DNA of 64,000 bases from Minisyncoccota bacterium (GCA_036169735.1 JAVHNX010000036.1:13681-77680); one strand, 5' to 3'. Counted from the stretch's first letter, positions 7,190-61,784 are shown. Numbers and translations are program-made. Notes: generated by a model from the letters alone, not told the origin.

Positions 7190-8530
7190 ATGGTTAAATC
7201 AATCAAAAAATCAAAGAATATATATATGGATTATGCCAGCGGTGCTTCAGCTAATCCTGCCAATCCTGGAGCAATTCACGATTTTGGTGTGAAAGCGAAA
7301 AAACAACTGAATGAAGCAAGGGAAGAAATTGCCAAGATTTTAGGTGCACACTCAAATGAAGTGGTTTTTACCTCAGGGGCAACAGAGAGTAATAATTTGG
7401 CAATTTTGGGAATACTAAGAAAATATTTTGAAACTTTTAGCCCCTATGTCAGACATAGGGGAGTTTCCCCTATGTCTGACATAGGGGCTGTTCCACATAT
7501 TGTTACCACAAACATAGAACATGCATCTGTGCTGGAGGTGTGTAAATATTTAGAAAAAACAAAACAAATAGAAGTGACTTATGTTCCAGTAGAAGAAAAT
7601 GGAATAGTAGATCCGGAGAAAATAAAAAAATCACTTAGACCAAATACGATTTTTGTTTCTGTTATGTATGCGAATAATGAGATTGGAAGTATCCAGCCAA
7701 TAAGAGAAATTGCAAAAGAAATTAGACATTATCGAAAACAAGAAGCGGAAAGAATAAATGAAAAAAGGTCGGACATTAAGAATTTAGAAAGGTCCGACCT
7801 TGGTATTTTTCCAGTTTTTCATACCGATGCGACTCAAGCAATAAATTATTTACCGATCAATGTTGAAAAACTTGGCATTGATTTGTTATCTTTTAATGGA
7901 TCAAAAATTTATGGGCCGAGTGGTGTTGGAGCTTTGTATGTAAAAAGACAGACACCTATCACTAGTATTATATTTGGCGGTGATCAAGAATTTGGATTAA
8001 GACCAGGGACAGAAAATATTGTCGGTATTGTTGGATTAGCAAAAGCTTTAAAAGTTGTAGAACAAATAAAAGATAAAGAAACAAAACGTTTAATTAAACT
8101 AAGAGATTATTTTATTAAAAAAATGTCAAGGTTAAGCCTTGACACTACACATTCCCCGAAACCAGGTTTAGGGGAACTTCCCCTAAACCTGGTTTCGGGG
8201 AAAGTTATACTAAATGGTGACCTAGAAAATAGACTACCAAACAATATAAATATCACTATTCCAAAAATTCCAAGTGATCTTTTGGTAATAGAACTTTCTG
8301 CTCATGGAATTATGGCTTCTGTCAAAAGTGCTTGTAAATCTGGTGACGAAAAGGCATCCCATGTAATACAAGCTATTCGAGAAGCACAACTAGGGGAGTT
8401 ATTGGTTAATAAAGAAATTGACGGATCAATCAGATTTTCTCTTGGTAGACAAACAACCAAAGATGATATTGACTACACACTAAAGGCTTTGTCTCAAATT
8501 TTGACCAAACTAAAAAGGTGGTATAATTAG
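7190..8530 (+). CDS. Cysteine desulfurase, NifS/IscS family (class V aminotransferase), carrying four in-frame palindromic insertions
   Basis: N-terminus IYMDYASGASANP...FTSGATESNNLAILG matches the IscS start, and ...SFNGSKIYGPSGVGALYV matches the PLP-lysine region. At 446 aa it is longer than typical because of the inserted peptides SPYVRHRGVSPMSDIGA, RSDIKNLERSDLG, MSRLSLD and HSPKPGLGELPLNLVSG. Confidence 0.8.
   Translation: MVKSIKKSKNIYMDYASGASANPANPGAIHDFGVKAKKQLNEAREEIAKILGAHSNEVVFTSGATESNNLAILGILRKYFETFSPYVRHRGVSPMSDIGAVPHIVTTNIEHASVLEVCKYLEKTKQIEVTYVPVEENGIVDPEKIKKSLRPNTIFVSVMYANNEIGSIQPIREIAKEIRHYRKQEAERINEKRSDIKNLERSDLGIFPVFHTDATQAINYLPINVEKLGIDLLSFNGSKIYGPSGVGALYVKRQTPITSIIFGGDQEFGLRPGTENIVGIVGLAKALKVVEQIKDKETKRLIKLRDYFIKKMSRLSLDTTHSPKPGLGELPLNLVSGKVILNGDLENRLPNNINITIPKIPSDLLVIELSAHGIMASVKSACKSGDEKASHVIQAIREAQLGELLVNKEIDGSIRFSLGRQTTKDDIDYTLKALSQILTKLKRWYN
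7439..7490. repeat. GC-rich composite palindrome inserted in-frame in nifS
   Basis: agcccctatgtcagacatagggg-ag-ttt-cccctatgtctgacataggggct: a 52-nt palindrome made of two CCCC...GGGG half-palindromes; encodes SPYVRHRGVSPMSDIGA. Confidence 0.7.
7765..7801. repeat. Hairpin element aaggtcggac...gtccgacctt inserted in-frame in nifS
   Basis: 10-bp arms aaggtcggac/gtccgacctt with a 17-nt loop. The same arms form the stem of the rsmI terminator at 58619-58672. Confidence 0.6.
8123..8145. repeat. ATG..CAT hairpin element (family 1) inserted in-frame in nifS
   Basis: atgtcaagg-ttaag-ccttgaca. Near-identical copies at 40142-40164, 57884-57906 and the variant at 49828-49850. Encodes MSRLSLD. Confidence 0.7.
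8154..8200. repeat. GC-rich composite palindrome inserted in-frame in nifS
   Basis: ccccgaaaccaggtttagggg-aactt-cccctaaacctggtttcgggg: a perfect 47-nt palindrome; encodes PKPGLGELPLNLVSG. Confidence 0.7.
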
Positions 8531-42546: not shown

Positions 42547-44661
42547 ATGGAGAATCCTAAAATACCAATCAATAAAGATATGACATATATAGGTCAGACG
42601 ACCTTTAGAGATAAGAATCAGATCTTTGGTATGAAGCGCAGAGATAGACGTCAGCACGTATATGTTCTTGGAAAATCTGGTACTGGTAAATCTGTGCTAC
42701 TTTCCAATATGATTGTTCAGAACATTCAAAACGGAGATGGTGTTTGCGTTGTTGATCCTCACGGAGAATTAGTTGAAAGTGTTTTACAATCTATTCCAAC
42801 TGACCGTATCAAAGATGTTATTTATTTCAACCCAGCTGATACGGATTACCATATAGGCTTTAATGTTATTGAAATTCTAGATCCAAAATATAAACATTTG
42901 GTGGCTTCAGGCTTGATGGGAATTTTCACTAAGATCTGGGCAAATGCTTGGTCTGCTCGTATGGAATATATTTTAAATAATACAATCTTGGCATTGTTGG
43001 ATACTCCAGGTTCGACTCTTCTTGGTATTCCAAGAATGTTAGTGGACAAAGAATATCGCAAAAAAATAATTGAAAATTTAAAGGATCCAGTCATTAAAGC
43101 TTTTTGGATACATGAGTACGAAGCTTGGAATGAAAAATTTAGAAATGAAGCTATTGCTCCGATTCAGAACAAAGTTGGACAATTTCTTTCTTCTTCTATC
43201 ATTAGAAATGTTGTAGGTCAATCAATGAGTACCATTAATGTTTTTGATATCATGAATGAAGGTAAAATTTTCTTGGTGAACGTTTCCAAGGGACGTATTG
43301 GTGAAGATAATTCCGCATTGCTTGGAGGTATGATTATTACCAAGATCCAGCTCGCTGCAATGGAGCGTGTGCGTATTCCTGAAGATGAAAGAAAAGACTT
43401 TTATTTATATGTCGACGAGTTCCAGAACTTCGTGACTGATTCTTTTGCCAGTATTTTGTCTGAAGCTCGAAAATACCGATTGAATCTAACTGTTGCTCAC
43501 CAGTACACAGCTCAGCTCGTGATTGATGGGTCTTCGGCAGTGCGTGACGCTGTCTTCGGCAACGTCGGTACGATGATTGTATTTCGAGTGGGTGCTGATG
43601 ATGCACTCTTTTTGGAAAAAGAATTTGAACCAGAATTCACTCCACAGGATATCGTGAACTTGCCGAACTATCGTATTTATTTACGTTTGATGATTGATGG
43701 TATTGGTTCACGTCCATTTTCTGCAAAGACTTTGCCTCCAATAGCAAAAAATCCAGATACTCAAGTTGAAGATAAAGTTATCAGTATGTCTCGCGCACTT
43801 TACTGTAAAAAGAAAGAAGTAGTTGAACAAGAAATAAATGATTGGAGTGGTATGTCTATCGGGAATATTGTCAGTACCAGTCCTATTAGTAATGTTGAAA
43901 AATTCCCAGCTGTTTGTTCTAATTGTAAAAAGGAAACTTCAGTACCATTTAAGCCTGAACCAGGACGACCGATTTATTGTAAGGATTGTATTGCAAAAAT
44001 AAAATCTGGAGAAATAAAGCCACTTCCACAACCAGCTCCTGTTAAAGAACCAATAAATGAAGTTAAAGTAGAACCAGTAAAGTCTGGAATTCTTTCAACA
44101 CTTACAAAAGTTTTAAAACCCATTATTCCGATTATTCCTATTCGTGCTCCATCAGAAATTAAGCGAAATGATTCTGTAGAATCAAAAGCTTTTACTAAAG
44201 CTCCGACTGTTCCTGTTGTTTCAGTGCCTCCAGTTCAAAAAGAAGCCCCAAGGCCATTTATTACTCGTCCTATACCAGCCCCAGTAAAACCTACAGAAAA
44301 TACAGCTTTGAGAGATATTTTAAATAAGACTTTGTCTGAGAGTAAAGTTCTTGAGAAACTTATTGTAGTACCAGAGGTAAAAGAAATTAAAATTCCCGTA
44401 CCACCTCCTGCAATGTCATTGAGTGATTTAAAAAGAACAAATCCTATATCAACAAATTCTCTAAATAATAATGATAGATCTGCAAGTGCTGAAGATATGA
44501 ATAAACTTAAAAACTTTATTTTTGAAAAAGTACCCACAGTATCACAAGAAAAAAAAGTTGAGCCGGTGAGCGAGGAAGTAAAAAAAGAAATTCCAGTCCC
44601 AACACCTCCAAAAAATATAAAAGAAGTGCCTGAAGATGTGTTAAAGAAGATTTTAGAATAG
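42547..44661 (+). CDS. FtsK/HerA-superfamily P-loop ATPase related to T4SS coupling proteins (TraG/VirD4/TraD-like), with C-terminal zinc ribbon and Pro-rich tail
   Basis: Walker A VLGKSGTGKS, VVDPHGE, Walker B LYVDEFQNF, ARKYRLNLTVAHQYTAQL (T4CP/HerA arginine-finger region). CSNCKK...YCKDC zinc ribbon, then PxP-rich low-complexity tail. No N-terminal TM. Start set at the second Met (MENPK) after the -10 TATAAT at 42533. Confidence 0.5.
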   Translation: MENPKIPINKDMTYIGQTTFRDKNQIFGMKRRDRRQHVYVLGKSGTGKSVLLSNMIVQNIQNGDGVCVVDPHGELVESVLQSIPTDRIKDVIYFNPADTDYHIGFNVIEILDPKYKHLVASGLMGIFTKIWANAWSARMEYILNNTILALLDTPGSTLLGIPRMLVDKEYRKKIIENLKDPVIKAFWIHEYEAWNEKFRNEAIAPIQNKVGQFLSSSIIRNVVGQSMSTINVFDIMNEGKIFLVNVSKGRIGEDNSALLGGMIITKIQLAAMERVRIPEDERKDFYLYVDEFQNFVTDSFASILSEARKYRLNLTVAHQYTAQLVIDGSSAVRDAVFGNVGTMIVFRVGADDALFLEKEFEPEFTPQDIVNLPNYRIYLRLMIDGIGSRPFSAKTLPPIAKNPDTQVEDKVISMSRALYCKKKEVVEQEINDWSGMSIGNIVSTSPISNVEKFPAVCSNCKKETSVPFKPEPGRPIYCKDCIAKIKSGEIKPLPQPAPVKEPINEVKVEPVKSGILSTLTKVLKPIIPIIPIRAPSEIKRNDSVESKAFTKAPTVPVVSVPPVQKEAPRPFITRPIPAPVKPTENTALRDILNKTLSESKVLEKLIVVPEVKEIKIPVPPPAMSLSDLKRTNPISTNSLNNNDRSASAEDMNKLKNFIFEKVPTVSQEKKVEPVSEEVKKEIPVPTPPKNIKEVPEDVLKKILE

Positions 44662-44761
44662 TTATACATATACATGGGAGTTTCCTATGTAGTTGCAATC
44701 TTCACTAGAAATAAAAAATTATTATCTATTTTAAAACATAAAAATGTTATAATATTTCGGT

Positions 44762-45748
44762 ATGGTATTAAAAAAGACACTAAAAAAGAAAGATGTTGTT
44801 ATTTACCAAGCCAAAAATGGAGCTATTGAACTTCGTGGTGATTTTTCTCGTGAAACTGTGTGGGCTACTCAGGCGCAGATTGCTGATGTTTTTCAGACTG
44901 AAAGATCTGTTGTGACTAAGCATATAAGAAATATTCTTAATGATAAAGAACTTAATGCTAATTCAGTATGTGCAAAATTTGCACATACTGCAGATGATGG
45001 AAAGGTTTATCAAGTACAATTTTATAATCTTGATGTTATTTTAGCTGTTGGATATAGAACAAGTTCAAAGAAGGCTATTGAATTTCGTCAGTGGGCAACA
45101 AAAACGTTACGAAGCTATATCGTAGATGGTTTTGCAATAAATAAAAACCGAATTGCTAAAAATTATGAACATTTTTTAAATGTTGTTGATGATATTAAAA
45201 AACTTTTGCCAGCTGAATCTACGGTTAATCCAAAAGATGCTATAGAACTCATATCACTTTTTGCTGATACTTGGCTTTCTTTGGATGCTTATGATCGAGA
45301 AATTTTATCAAAAGGAAAGCTTACAAAAAAGAAAGTTAACATTACTTCCGAAAAAATTTCACGAGATTTATTCGAGCTTAGAAAAATTCTTATTGAAAAA
45401 GGTGAAGCGACAGATATTTTTGGTCACGAAAGAAATGTTGGTTTTGTGTCGGGAATAGTTGATAATGTAATGCAGTCATTCGGAGGCAATGAACTTTATC
45501 CAACAGTTGAAGAAAAGGCTGCACATCTTTTGTATTTTATGGTAAAGAACCATCCATTTACTGATGGTAATAAACGTTCAGGAGCTTTTGCTTTTGTTTG
45601 GTTATTGAAACAGGCAAATATTCTTGATATTCAAAAATTAAGCCCTTCAGCCCTGACAGCATTAACTGTGCTTGTGGCAGAAAGTGACCCAAATCATAAA
45701 GATAAGATTATTAAACTCATTTTGAATCTTATTTCAAAGAATAATTAA
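44762..45748 (+). CDS. RhuM-family N-terminal domain fused to Fic/Doc domain
   Basis: N-terminus VVIYQAKNGAIELRGDFSRETVWATQAQIADVFQTERSVVTKHIRNI matches the RhuM family. C-terminus has the Fic motif HPFTDGNKRSG. Confidence 0.7.
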   Translation: MVLKKTLKKKDVVIYQAKNGAIELRGDFSRETVWATQAQIADVFQTERSVVTKHIRNILNDKELNANSVCAKFAHTADDGKVYQVQFYNLDVILAVGYRTSSKKAIEFRQWATKTLRSYIVDGFAINKNRIAKNYEHFLNVVDDIKKLLPAESTVNPKDAIELISLFADTWLSLDAYDREILSKGKLTKKKVNITSEKISRDLFELRKILIEKGEATDIFGHERNVGFVSGIVDNVMQSFGGNELYPTVEEKAAHLLYFMVKNHPFTDGNKRSGAFAFVWLLKQANILDIQKLSPSALTALTVLVAESDPNHKDKIIKLILNLISKNN

Positions 45749-51047: not shown

Positions 51048-51090
51048 AAAAGCCCCGTTACCATAAATGGTAACGGGGCTTTCTTTTTTT
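51048..51090 (+). terminator. Rho-independent terminator
   Basis: aaagccccgttacc-ataaa-tggtaacggggcttt followed by a T-run; the stem contains CCCGTTA/TAACGGG. Confidence 0.6.
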
Positions 51091-52337: not shown

Positions 52338-52586
<249 letters not shown>

Positions 52587-52594
52587 TGGAATGA

Positions 52595-52716
52595 ATCCCG
52601 TTAGAAGCCGCGGTCGCAGTTTCAAATCGGGATATAAATTAATTAGGATTAAAAAAATAATTAGCAGGAAATGGTTTATTTAAAAAGATTGACCGTGACC
52701 TGCTTCTAAACGGGAT
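52595..52716. repeat. IR-flanked intergenic element A (atpE-atpF spacer); right arm overlaps atpF start codon
   Basis: Left arm atcccgttagaagc (52595-52608), right arm gcttctaaacgggat (52702-52716); about 90-nt AT-rich interior; atpF ATG at 52715. Confidence 0.6.
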
Positions 52717-53209
52717 GAATGAATTAATAACAACATTTCACATAGATTGGAAAATAATGCTCGCACAGCTATTCAACTTTGCGTTGGTTTTTGTTGCTCT
52801 TTATTTTATTGCCGCAAAACCACTTCGCAAGATGATGGACGATCGTGAGAATGAAATAAAGACCGGTTTGACTGATGCTGAAAATGCTAAGGCCGAGCTT
52901 GCAGGAGCAAGTCTAAAAAAGGAAGAAATCACAAGAGAAGCAAAGGACAATGCAAAAAATATTATTTCTCAGTCACAAGCTGACGGTAGAGACATAGTAA
53001 AAGAGGCAAAAGACAAAGCTACTCTTGAAAAAGAAGAAATCTTAAAACAAGCTCGACTTGATGTAGAAAAAGAAAAGAAGACTGGCGACGAAGCTATCAG
53101 AAAAGAAGCTGCAGAGCTCGTCTCTGTTGGTATACGAAAAATGGTTGAAGGCTACGTAGCTGCTGGTAAAGGTGATGAAATTATCAATGCAATGTTGGCT
53201 AAGAAATAA
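52715..53209 (+). CDS. atpF: F0F1 ATP synthase subunit b
   Basis: N-terminal TM helix then long charged alpha-helix; operon position. Confidence 0.8.
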   Translation: MNELITTFHIDWKIMLAQLFNFALVFVALYFIAAKPLRKMMDDRENEIKTGLTDAENAKAELAGASLKKEEITREAKDNAKNIISQSQADGRDIVKEAKDKATLEKEEILKQARLDVEKEKKTGDEAIRKEAAELVSVGIRKMVEGYVAAGKGDEIINAMLAKK

Positions 53210-53211
53210 TA

Positions 53212-53628
53212 ATGATTAAATCAAAACAACTGGCTCAGGCTTTATTTGAACTCTCAGAAGAGGAGAACTTGGTAGCAGGACTACCAAGTTCACTTGGTAG
53301 TCCTGCTACCAAGTCATTGGATGAGAAGTTTTTTAGTTTTATTGAAAAAAGAAATTTGAAAGGACAGATGAACTCAGTCCTTTATCACTTGGAAAGAATC
53401 ACTGAACAAGAAAAAGAAAAGAAGGGTATACAGATAGAAACAGCTCATGAGATAAAAGCTGAGACTGCCAAACAAATAAAGACTTTCCTAAAAGCTGATC
53501 ACCTGACTGAATCATTAAAAATCAAAAAAGAATTAGTCGCAGGATTTCGAGCGAAGTTCGGAGGAAAGATTTATGATTCGAGTATTATGACTGGTTTGAA
53601 GAAATTAGAAAGAGAGATTGCCAAATAA
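53212..53628 (+). CDS. atpH: F0F1 ATP synthase subunit delta (short, 138 aa)
   Basis: Operon position. C-terminal IKKELVAGFRAKFGGKIYDSSIMTGLKKL resembles the OSCP/delta C-terminus. Confidence 0.65.
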   Translation: MIKSKQLAQALFELSEEENLVAGLPSSLGSPATKSLDEKFFSFIEKRNLKGQMNSVLYHLERITEQEKEKKGIQIETAHEIKAETAKQIKTFLKADHLTESLKIKKELVAGFRAKFGGKIYDSSIMTGLKKLEREIAK

Positions 53629-56088: not shown

Positions 56089-57495
<1,407 letters not shown>

Positions 57496-57498
57496 TTA

Positions 57499-57622
57499 AT
57501 CCCGTTAGAGGTAGGAAGTCTTTAGACTTCCGTCAGTGTTGCCACTAAAAGTTACTTAACTAAATTTATTATAAAATATTCATTCATCAATAATATAAAA
57601 ACTATATGACCTCTAACGGGAT
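57499..57622. repeat. IR-flanked intergenic element B (atpD-atpC spacer); right arm lies in codons 2-6 of atpC
   Basis: Left arm atcccgttagaggt (57499-57512), right arm acctctaacgggat (57609-57622); inner hairpin ggaagtc-tttag-gacttcc; atpC ATG at 57606. Confidence 0.6.
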
Positions 57623-61636: not shown

Positions 61637-61679
61637 ATTTCTATTCTAGCATAATTTGTGATATATTTAGCCGTATGGG

Positions 61680-61779
61680 TCCCGTTAGAAGTTATCCTAA
61701 TGGGGCTTATTTATAAACATAATAAAGTTACCTAAAAGTCATTTATCTATAATGTAATATTGGTTAACTTCTAACGGGA
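61680..61779. repeat. IR-flanked intergenic element C (priA/mreB divergent region); right arm abuts mreB start codon
   Basis: Left arm tcccgttagaagtta (61680-61694), right arm taacttctaacggga (61765-61779) followed by ATG. The complement of the left arm can pair with atcccgttgg in priA codons 6-9. Confidence 0.6.
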
Positions 61780-61784
61780 TGGGA

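Follow-up and report, generated by a model that had tools for sequence, protein, structure and literature searches.

Correia elements (NEMIS) are non-coding repeats of about 100–150 bp with terminal inverted repeats (TIRs), a short target duplication and arms that form a hairpin. They are often co-transcribed, and the RNA hairpin of their arms is cut by RNase III, altering expression in Neisseria. The REP/REPIN repeats (RAYT, Y1/HUH) are short, palindromic and intergenic; their structure is kept with a variable stem, and they are thought to move as hairpins. Rickettsia palindromic elements (RPEs) are palindromic mobile repeats of reduced genomes which are tolerated in or beside essential genes owing to the place and manner of their insertion. 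MIRU and ERIC/IRU are intercistronic repeats inside operons; the ORFs of MIRUs overlap the stop and start codons of the adjacent genes, an arrangement believed to maintain translational coupling.

The repeats analysed here resemble these systems in the features named, but differ from each of them. Correia elements have an unrelated sequence, a TA duplication and 26-bp arms, are not tied to start codons and reside in Neisseria, whereas the present element duplicates TGRR at a start codon, completes a new ATG with its own last base and occurs in CPR and other uncultivated phyla. REPINs lack TIRs bounded by duplications, have a GTAG motif and are found mostly at the 3' ends of genes, whereas the present element has a 4-bp duplication and is placed on start codons; an assignment to REP/REPIN-RAYT was rejected since the element has both a target duplication and TIRs and a different core. 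RPEs are situated in frame within coding sequences and are translated, whereas the element is placed at the start codon and gives rise to a uORF of 5–81 codons. MIRUs are tandem direct repeats and not hairpins, and neither MIRU nor ERIC/IRU duplicates the start codon.

We consider it likely that the three repeats found in the analysed DNA are copies of a non-autonomous, MITE-like mobile element of about 100–125 bp, belonging to a family which is spread across the Patescibacteria and, judged by record title, several further uncultivated phyla. The element looks like an undescribed variant of the bacterial miniature transposons and not like a home-grown regulatory RNA. The earlier note on this DNA knew of no described element with this consensus, and our searches agreed with it: there is no Rfam family for the element, and nothing relevant was found in the searchable literature. 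With Rfam 15 at gathering score only tRNA, tmRNA and c-di-GMP-I were detected in the window and 18 further loci, and in E-value mode the best sub-threshold match to copy 1 was unrelated (E = 0.24).

The window, i.e. the whole stretch of 64,000 nt that was analysed, has a G+C content of 34.8% and belongs to the Minisyncoccia (Patescibacteria/CPR); its AtpF is 98% identical to a protein from a Minisyncoccia MAG. The gene order is atpB-atpE-(copy 1)-atpF-atpH-atpA-atpG-atpD-(copy 2)-atpC and, further on, priA (minus strand)-(copy 3)-mreB. All three copies reported in the earlier note on the starts of atpF, atpC and mreB were recovered at essentially the same coordinates. Their shared arm consists of TCCCGTTAGA plus three covarying bases and abuts or overlaps the three starts. 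The features are as follows.

52596..52715, plus strand: copy 1, long-stem subtype, in the usual orientation relative to atpF
52596-52608 and 52702-52715: 13-nt TIRs of copy 1, left TCCCGTTAGAAGC and right GCTTCTAAACGGGA, the latter with one extra A
52609-52615 and 52691-52697: stem extension of copy 1, CGCGGTC pairing with GACCGTG, with ACCT unpaired on the right strand
52592..52595, plus strand: left copy (TGAA) of the target duplication of copy 1
52716..52719, plus strand: right copy (TGAA) of the target duplication of copy 1, which together with the terminal A52715 forms the working atpF start ATGAA
57500..57621, minus strand: copy 2, subterminal-hairpin subtype, inverted relative to atpC
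57500-57512 and 57609-57621: TIRs of copy 2
57514-57531: hairpin GGAAGTC-TTTA-GACTTCC of copy 2, 1 nt inside the left TIR
57606..57621, plus strand: element-derived start of atpC, comprising the ATG (57606-57608), codons 2-5 (T-S-N-G) and the A of codon 6
61680..61779, plus strand: copy 3, short subtype, with 19-nt arms containing one mismatch; the closest interiors (L093, L023) are 72-76% identical
61676..61679, plus strand: left copy (TGGG) of the target duplication of copy 3, reading ATGGG with A61675
61780..61783, plus strand: right copy (TGGG) of the target duplication of copy 3, which with the terminal A61779 forms the mreB ATG (61779-61781)

The exact 12-mer TCCCGTTAGARG occurs five times in the 64 kb and is confined to the three arm pairs, the sixth arm carrying a 1-nt insertion; no further credible copy was detected in the 64 kb by a paired scan allowing up to 3 mismatches per arm. 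The interiors of the three copies (80–102 nt) are AT-rich and mutually unalignable; the arms alone are common to them. In copies 1 and 2 the left arm starts 4–9 nt past the upstream stop codon (atpE, 52584–52586; atpD, 57493–57495).

In copy 1 the left TGAA together with A52591 represents the old atpF start ATGAA, which is now the pseudo-start of a 30-codon uORF ending within the element. The ATG of atpF (52715–52717) takes its A from the final base of the right arm. Copy 2 has no target duplication (flanks TTAA and TAAA) and stands in place of 13 nt (AATATGTCTAATC) that included the ancestral atpC ATG. The new ATG stems from a CATATG that is conserved in the subfamily of copy 2. The N-terminus of AtpC reads MTSNGIKISIIAKD in the window versus MSNLKISIIAKD in a sister genome (L133, GCA_049287045.1), the aligned starts being MTSNG-IKISII and MSNL-KISII. 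The atpC copy has later lost its duplication and the old ATG, and the gene now starts inside the element. For mreB an alternative start at a second in-frame ATG (61785) is possible.

Comparison with the sister genomes revealed the empty sites. L133, which shares 92–96% nucleotide identity with the window, has no element between atpE and atpF or between atpD and atpC, and the alignment of the two breaks exactly at 52587/52715 and 57499/57622. A second relative (L131, GCA_023267435.1; 81–89%, or about 85%, nucleotide identity) is empty at atpD–atpC and at priA–mreB. At the mreB site L131 reads TATATTTAGCCCTATGGGAATGTTTTC, versus ...GCCGTATGGG followed by the element (TCCCG...CGGGATGGG) and AATGTTTTC in the window, corresponding to an exact insertion with duplication of ATGGG. 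At the atpF site the sequence of the relatives is ...ATGAATGAA..., as compared with ATGAA, the element and then ATGAATGAA in the window. All three copies of the window arrived after the split from these sister genomes, which keep the empty sites. No orthologous occupied site was found among the relatives that would serve for a test of compensatory changes; those with 76–85% AtpF identity carry another spacer. A conserved G+C-rich block, GCCTTCGCCCTCTGAAAAGATAGGAAAGGGGACCCACGAC, was seen in the atpE–atpF spacer of relatives (L131, 9889–10000; L139, 1223–1330; L137, 1–76). In the same spacer L133 has the hairpin TTGACAAGGTTCAACCTTGTCAA and the window has the TIR element.

Mobility is also apparent within single genomes. 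Near-identical interiors were found at different sites of one genome, with 98% identity in L105, where the two copies are 212 nt apart, and 95% in L112. There are also tandem or back-to-back copies, in which a second element is inserted in the ATGAA regenerated by the first:

L026, 7674-7895: tandem elements
L024, 5898-6279: tandem elements
L105, 6579-6909: tandem elements
L117, 3882-3889: tandem elements

The earlier note had taken the repeats for a structured RNA rather than a MITE. On this reading they would be an immobile cis-regulatory RNA evolved by the host, whose long-range stem joins the cistrons and acts as an RNase III site or as a coupling or occlusion structure in the ATP synthase operon. 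The stable predicted stems, the covarying arms, the closeness of the left arms of copies 1 and 2 to the upstream stop codons and the predicted partial pairing of the start codon at the right arm (AUG2) are in its favour. It fails, however, on the target duplications, on the precise empty sites in sister genomes whose operons are intact, on the near-identical copies dispersed over different sites and on the spread of the copies over several phyla, where they precede about 150 unrelated gene families; furthermore, the operon of the relatives runs without the element. We therefore regard a host-evolved RNA as very improbable, and as the exclusive explanation it is already contradicted. The element is a mobile insertion, to which the pairing constraint described below belongs.

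The extent of the family was assessed by scanning species-representative genomes, one genome per species, with the pattern TCCCGTTAGA-N75-105-TCTAACGGGA, and at least 120 stretches matched. The matches listed are mostly from Patescibacteria (Saccharibacteria, Paceibacteria/Parcubacteria, the Kaiser-, Nomura-, Wolfe- and Yanofskybacteria groups, and others), and by MAG record title they also include Omnitrophota, Sedimentisphaerales, Elusimicrobia and WOR-3. The 0.94 Mb around the matches listed contain 143 paired elements of 80–131 nt with length peaks at 102–108 and 116–122 nt. As this sample was chosen by exact 10-nt arms, arm positions 1–10 are fixed by the pattern and are uninformative on conservation. 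Among the matches listed the downstream proteins span 148 Pfam families, many of them essential, for example PheT, topoisomerase I, aaRS, RRF, L9, L17, SecG and adenylate kinase. A confinement of the element to the ATP synthase operon is not supported.

Six characteristics of MITEs could be tested and five of them were found, the missing one being an autonomous partner. With 80–131 nt the elements are smaller than 300 bp, and they lack coding capacity of their own, the frame opened by the left ATG having no conserved length. The element has 13-bp TIRs. A target duplication is present in 100 of 142 elements among the matches listed, and in the window copies 1 and 3 have it and copy 2 does not. 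Presence/absence and dispersal are documented by the empty sites in L133 and L131, by the pairs in L105 and L112 and by the occurrence in at least 120 stretches.

The search for the partner covered the flanks, the window and viral contigs. No pairs of TIRs more than 320 nt apart, as expected for an autonomous copy, were present in the 0.94 Mb of flanks; the unpaired arms mostly have a diverged partner 95–320 nt away. In the window none of the 30 ORFs scanned encodes a transposase, integrase, Y1 protein or invertase, all being housekeeping genes or without match, and no viral contig matched the element. A gene for a TrwB/VirD4-type coupling protein with a zinc finger, followed by a RhuM-Fic gene, is located at 42547–45748 of the window; both are kept in L133, and no transposase gene lies nearby.

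The ends of the element resemble, as we presume and as a lead only, the piggyBac/IS1380-type ends, with a 13-bp TIR CCCTAGAAAG in piggyBac and (T)CCCGTTAGAAG in the element. Both presumably also share a 4-bp duplication of the form T..A, which is TTAA for piggyBac and mostly TGAA or TGGA for the element. PiggyBac excises precisely. It is, however, eukaryotic, and the target of the present element is not palindromic. A non-palindromic TGRR target is odd for a symmetric DDE transpososome and counts against the explanation that we prefer, the MITE-like mobile element.

The location on start codons claimed for the three copies proved to be a property of the family. Among the matches listed an ATG directly follows the right arm (CGGG) in 127 of 143 elements. 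This right-hand ATG opens an ORF of at least 60 aa in 118 of the 127, whereas of all ATGRR sites in this DNA 29% do so. An open frame of at least 60 codons upstream of it was present in just four of these 127 listed matches, so that the elements are situated at N-termini and not at internal Met codons. The copies were thus neither scattered at random relative to genes nor, as shown below, equipped with non-complementary arms.

Oriented by the ATG, the left flank reads A-T-G-R-R-T in about 85% of the matches listed, and in 90 of 127 of them an identical 5-mer is present on both sides (ATGAA more often than ATGGA, and ATGGA more often than ATGAG). When the element is treated as a perfect palindrome TCCCG...CGGGA, identical 4-nt flanks are found in 100 of the 142 among the matches listed, and another 10 share only 3 nt. 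The duplication is TGRR in 89 of the 100. The base preceding it is A in 86 cases and G in three, and never C or T, which identifies start codons, ATG or GTG, as the targets. Since the element ends with the A of the right-hand ATG, the three GTG genes now read ATG. In the same way the terminal A and the duplicated TGRR rebuild the ATG, so that the downstream gene stays intact. Among the matches listed the upstream genes often have their stop codon within the left ATGA (17 cases) or in the TAG of the left arm (10 cases).

Two purines follow TG in 89% of the duplications versus about 37% of the called ATG starts. This preference points to a preference of some enzyme, and the restriction of the preceding base to A or G points to start-codon function. 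In a crude count over the same loci several hundred to about 1,200 non-coding ATGRR sites were found versus about 270–500 at starts. With about 93% of the ATGRR-flanked copies at starts, the observed share exceeds this crude neutral expectation, and random insertion followed by purifying selection may thus be insufficient. The bias may arise from active targeting, from strong selection or from survival of copies where only precise excision is viable.

Signals in front of the left ATG were inspected as well. An SD-like sequence (GGAG, GAGG or AGGA within 25 nt) precedes it in 19 of 100 cases, which is about equal to the coding control. Within the 34 nt upstream of the left ATG in L011–L130, a TANNNT hexamer resembling a -10 box ends exactly 6 nt before this ATG in 18 of 100 element-bearing genes. 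Given these two values, leaderless-type starts seem common in the lineages bearing the element.

We considered whether the element actively homes to start codons, with a machinery directed to translation or transcription start sites, for example by melted leaderless-promoter DNA or by a site-specific recombinase with an ATGRR crossover, instead of being sorted by selection after insertion. The youngest copies (pairs with 95–98% identity) also reside on ATGRR, a regenerated ATGAA is used again in the tandem copies, and the only base other than A in front of TGRR is G, so that GTG starts are used. The enrichment above the crude neutral expectation and the -10 box exactly 6 nt upstream, a leaderless arrangement, would fit as well, and the joined ends CGGGA and TCCCG around an asymmetric core of 4–5 bp resemble the core site of a recombinase. 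However, about 11% of the clean duplications are other 4-mers (TAAA, TTTA, CTGA, CTTA, CTAA) that do not lie at starts. Whether operon-internal, leaderless or SD-led, all these kinds of starts are targeted and have only ATGRR in common, and a deletion bias in streamlined genomes could retain those copies that are removable only precisely. Active homing is for us a tentative possibility which we do not favour. The same reserve applies to a more far-reaching view, namely that a mobile element homes to start codons across several phyla with a machinery that reads start sites and an end made to restore the ATG, and that its hairpin is a portable translational coupler or occluder, a selfish element having turned into a widespread, exchangeable 5' module of CPR housekeeping genes; we put this forward as speculative and rather doubtful.

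Returning to the MITE-like element, we analysed the pairing of its arms. The covariation noticed in the three copies of the window, from which a selection for pairing had been deduced, holds for the family in general, and the arms are constrained in their pairing and not in sequence alone. Among the matches listed arm positions 11–13 are perfectly complementary in 108 of 127 elements, with 14 triplet types, whereas with shuffled partners the mean was 15.6 and the highest count 28. At position 11 the pairs are A-T (76), G-C (38), T-A (4) and C-G (4), and positions 12 and 13 are similar; in the matches listed more than 93% of the pairs at these variable positions of the 13-bp TIR are of the Watson-Crick type. 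Non-Watson-Crick pairs on the gene strand are G.U in 25 versus A.C in 12 cases, and this excess is a weak hint of selection at the RNA level or specific for one single strand.

The constraint extends beyond the TIRs. Among the matches listed, 40 elements contain a perfect hairpin of 6–10 bp exactly 1 nt inside one arm, with 25 different stems. This subterminal-hairpin layout, to which copy 2 belongs, is ACGG-stem-loop-stem-CC-T-arm. In the long-stem layout, represented by copy 1, the 5' half of the hairpin adjoins the left arm, and the terminal stem is thereby lengthened to about 21 bp, its right strand having a 4-nt bulge. The extension covaries too (CGCGGTC/GACCGCG, CACGGTC/GACCGTG, CGCGGAC/GTCCGCG). 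Among the matches listed the elements favour one orientation towards the gene by 51:6, and by 22:0 in the long-stem type.

We predicted the RNA folds of the elements. The terminal stem is part of the predicted minimum free energy (MFE) structure in 122 of 127 elements among the matches listed (mean -41 kcal/mol, median z -4.5). On average 2.1 of the three bases of the start codon at the right arm (AUG2) are predicted to be paired, versus 1.0 for the left one (AUG1). Copy 2 is predicted to form the terminal stem as expected (z -5.2), and in copy 3 the stem appears in both the MFE and the centroid structure (z -1.6). In the MFE structure of copy 1 the left arm pairs with an internal CGGGAT instead (z -3.2). 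A (C)GGGA(T) box, located at 52624–52630 in the window, is weakly enriched 20–35 nt from the left end of the elements L011–L130. This box has the sequence of the terminal CGGGAT and is able to compete with the right arm for the left one; it may provide an alternative fold or one more site for protein binding.

Additional pairings had been suggested within the window which turned out to be coincidental. The sequence atcccgttgg in priA, supposed to pair with the complement of the left arm of copy 3, encodes I-P-L-E and reads ATTCCACTTAAA in L131. The CCCGTTA occurrences in the terminator stem at 51048–51081 are not conserved either, with CCCCATTATC in L133 and an unrelated hairpin in L131. A link between the terminator upstream of tRNA-Ile and the element was dismissed as coincidence.

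The element could also be moved in single-stranded, folded form by an enzyme that recognises structure, either an HUH/Y1 transposase of the kind serving REP/REPIN and IS200/IS605 or a tyrosine recombinase of the kind acting on integron attC, and not by DDE cut-and-paste. A fixed core next to a paired region that is free in sequence, with a hairpin free in sequence at a fixed distance, would suit such an enzyme, as would the biased orientation; the core GTTAGA/TCTAAC recalls the R boxes GTTRRRY/RYYYAAC of attC. REP/RAYT and IS200/IS605, however, have neither duplications nor terminal inverted repeats and the element has both. The order of the boxes is opposite to that of attC, with GTTAGA on the 5' arm, and an integrase or Y1 gene is absent from the window. 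On balance we think that single-strand transfer is unlikely. An identification of the element as an integron attC site itself was rejected on account of the reversed box order (GTTAGAR on the 5' arm), the location at the 5' ends of housekeeping genes and the lack of an integrase in the window.

Just upstream of genes, the inverted repeat encloses a non-conserved AT-rich segment with many -10-like hexamers, a layout that could in principle also belong to an invertible promoter (inverton) or to paired sites of a DNA-binding protein, serving as operators or uptake signals. Among the 20 independent assemblies found, ten were inspected and in none of them was the interior flipped, which argues against an inverton. 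The 80–100 bp interior contains no positioned -35/-10 pair, the duplications and empty sites testify to insertion, and no invertase is encoded in the window. We give this interpretation practically no credence.

Other candidate functions of the interior were tried and rejected. A conserved peptide read from the left ATG is not apparent, as the lengths vary from 5 to 81 codons and only 14 frames read through among the matches listed. As to a positioned internal promoter or SD, the -10-like hexamers are spread diffusely over both strands as in AT-rich DNA, and SD-like words have no sharp peak. A guide-like covariation between the type of duplication and the sequence of the element was not supported either, given that near-identical elements carry different duplications.

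For the MITE-like element we propose the following working. Insertion duplicates 4 bp, in about nine of ten clean cases the TG of the start codon and the next two purines ([A/G]TG RR), and the mobilising enzyme would act in trans. In the mRNA, pairing of the arms would leave the insertion as a loop. The base of the resulting stem would carry on its 5' side the former initiation context, namely the promoter, the overlapping stop codon or the SD, and the pseudo-start AUG1, and on its 3' side the working AUG2, followed by the intact coding region. A stable stem 6 nt past AUG1 should disfavour initiation at AUG1 and would bring AUG2 near the original context. The partly paired AUG2 probably needs melting of the stem by ribosomes that end the upstream gene or translate the AUG1 uORF; through such melting an insertion would be tolerated before essential genes and the pairing kept. 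The pairing constraint could stem from this requirement at the RNA level or from a single-strand hairpin that is recognised in transposition.

The element is possibly a translational coupler, even before essential genes, and both RNase III processing and translational coupling appear plausible. This comes close to the idea of the earlier note, but coupling would be a property of the mobile element. A functional analogy for an AUG beyond a stable hairpin may be seen in the hairpin-bridged ribosome binding site of phage T4 gene 38 and in termination-reinitiation coupling. Structures of the gene 38 type are fixed and gene-specific, whereas the hairpin of the element would be delivered by a mobile sequence.

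If our reading is correct, the element would be the first bacterial miniature transposon known to us with nearly all of its copies on start codons and with a terminal base that restores the ATG. Its start-codon specificity is unusual and possibly mechanistically new. It would also provide a handle on translation initiation in CPR, where essential genes would tolerate a hairpin of about 120 nt and a predicted stability of roughly -40 kcal/mol between their signals and the AUG. Furthermore, the element could be a ready marker of recent insertions and of horizontal exchange between uncultivated phyla.

The element has practical consequences for sequence records, since it interferes with assembly as well as with gene calling. 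Starts carried by the element are overlooked or misplaced by gene callers; one record stores the same atpF as a protein of 150 aa called from an internal ATG. In atpC the start codon and four further codons are derived from the element. The Logan contigs L140–L142, from independent assemblies of the strain of the window, have their break precisely where the left duplication and arm of copy 1 are located, and begin with ATGAATCCCG... or GAATCCCG....

Further palindromes of a different kind were noticed in the window. In atpH (53212–53628) a perfect 23-nt inverted repeat with a 2-nt spacer is located at 53267–53314 and adds 42 nt in frame; AtpH has 138 aa in the window versus 124 in L133 and 125 in L131. 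Each arm of this palindrome is itself a hairpin (ACTTGGTAG-CAGGA-CTACCAAGT), and L137 has a different palindrome at the same codon of atpH. The atpH palindrome resembles an RPE-like in-frame insertion; its sequence is unrelated to the TIR element, and it is a closer analogue of the RPEs than the TIR element. Two more double-hairpin palindromes with an architecture like that in atpH are situated inside the ORF 7190–8530 (Aminotran_5), at 7439–7489 and 8149–8205. Their arms are complementary over 24 nt at 100% and over 28 nt at 96%, and the Pfam match of this ORF is split in three stretches.
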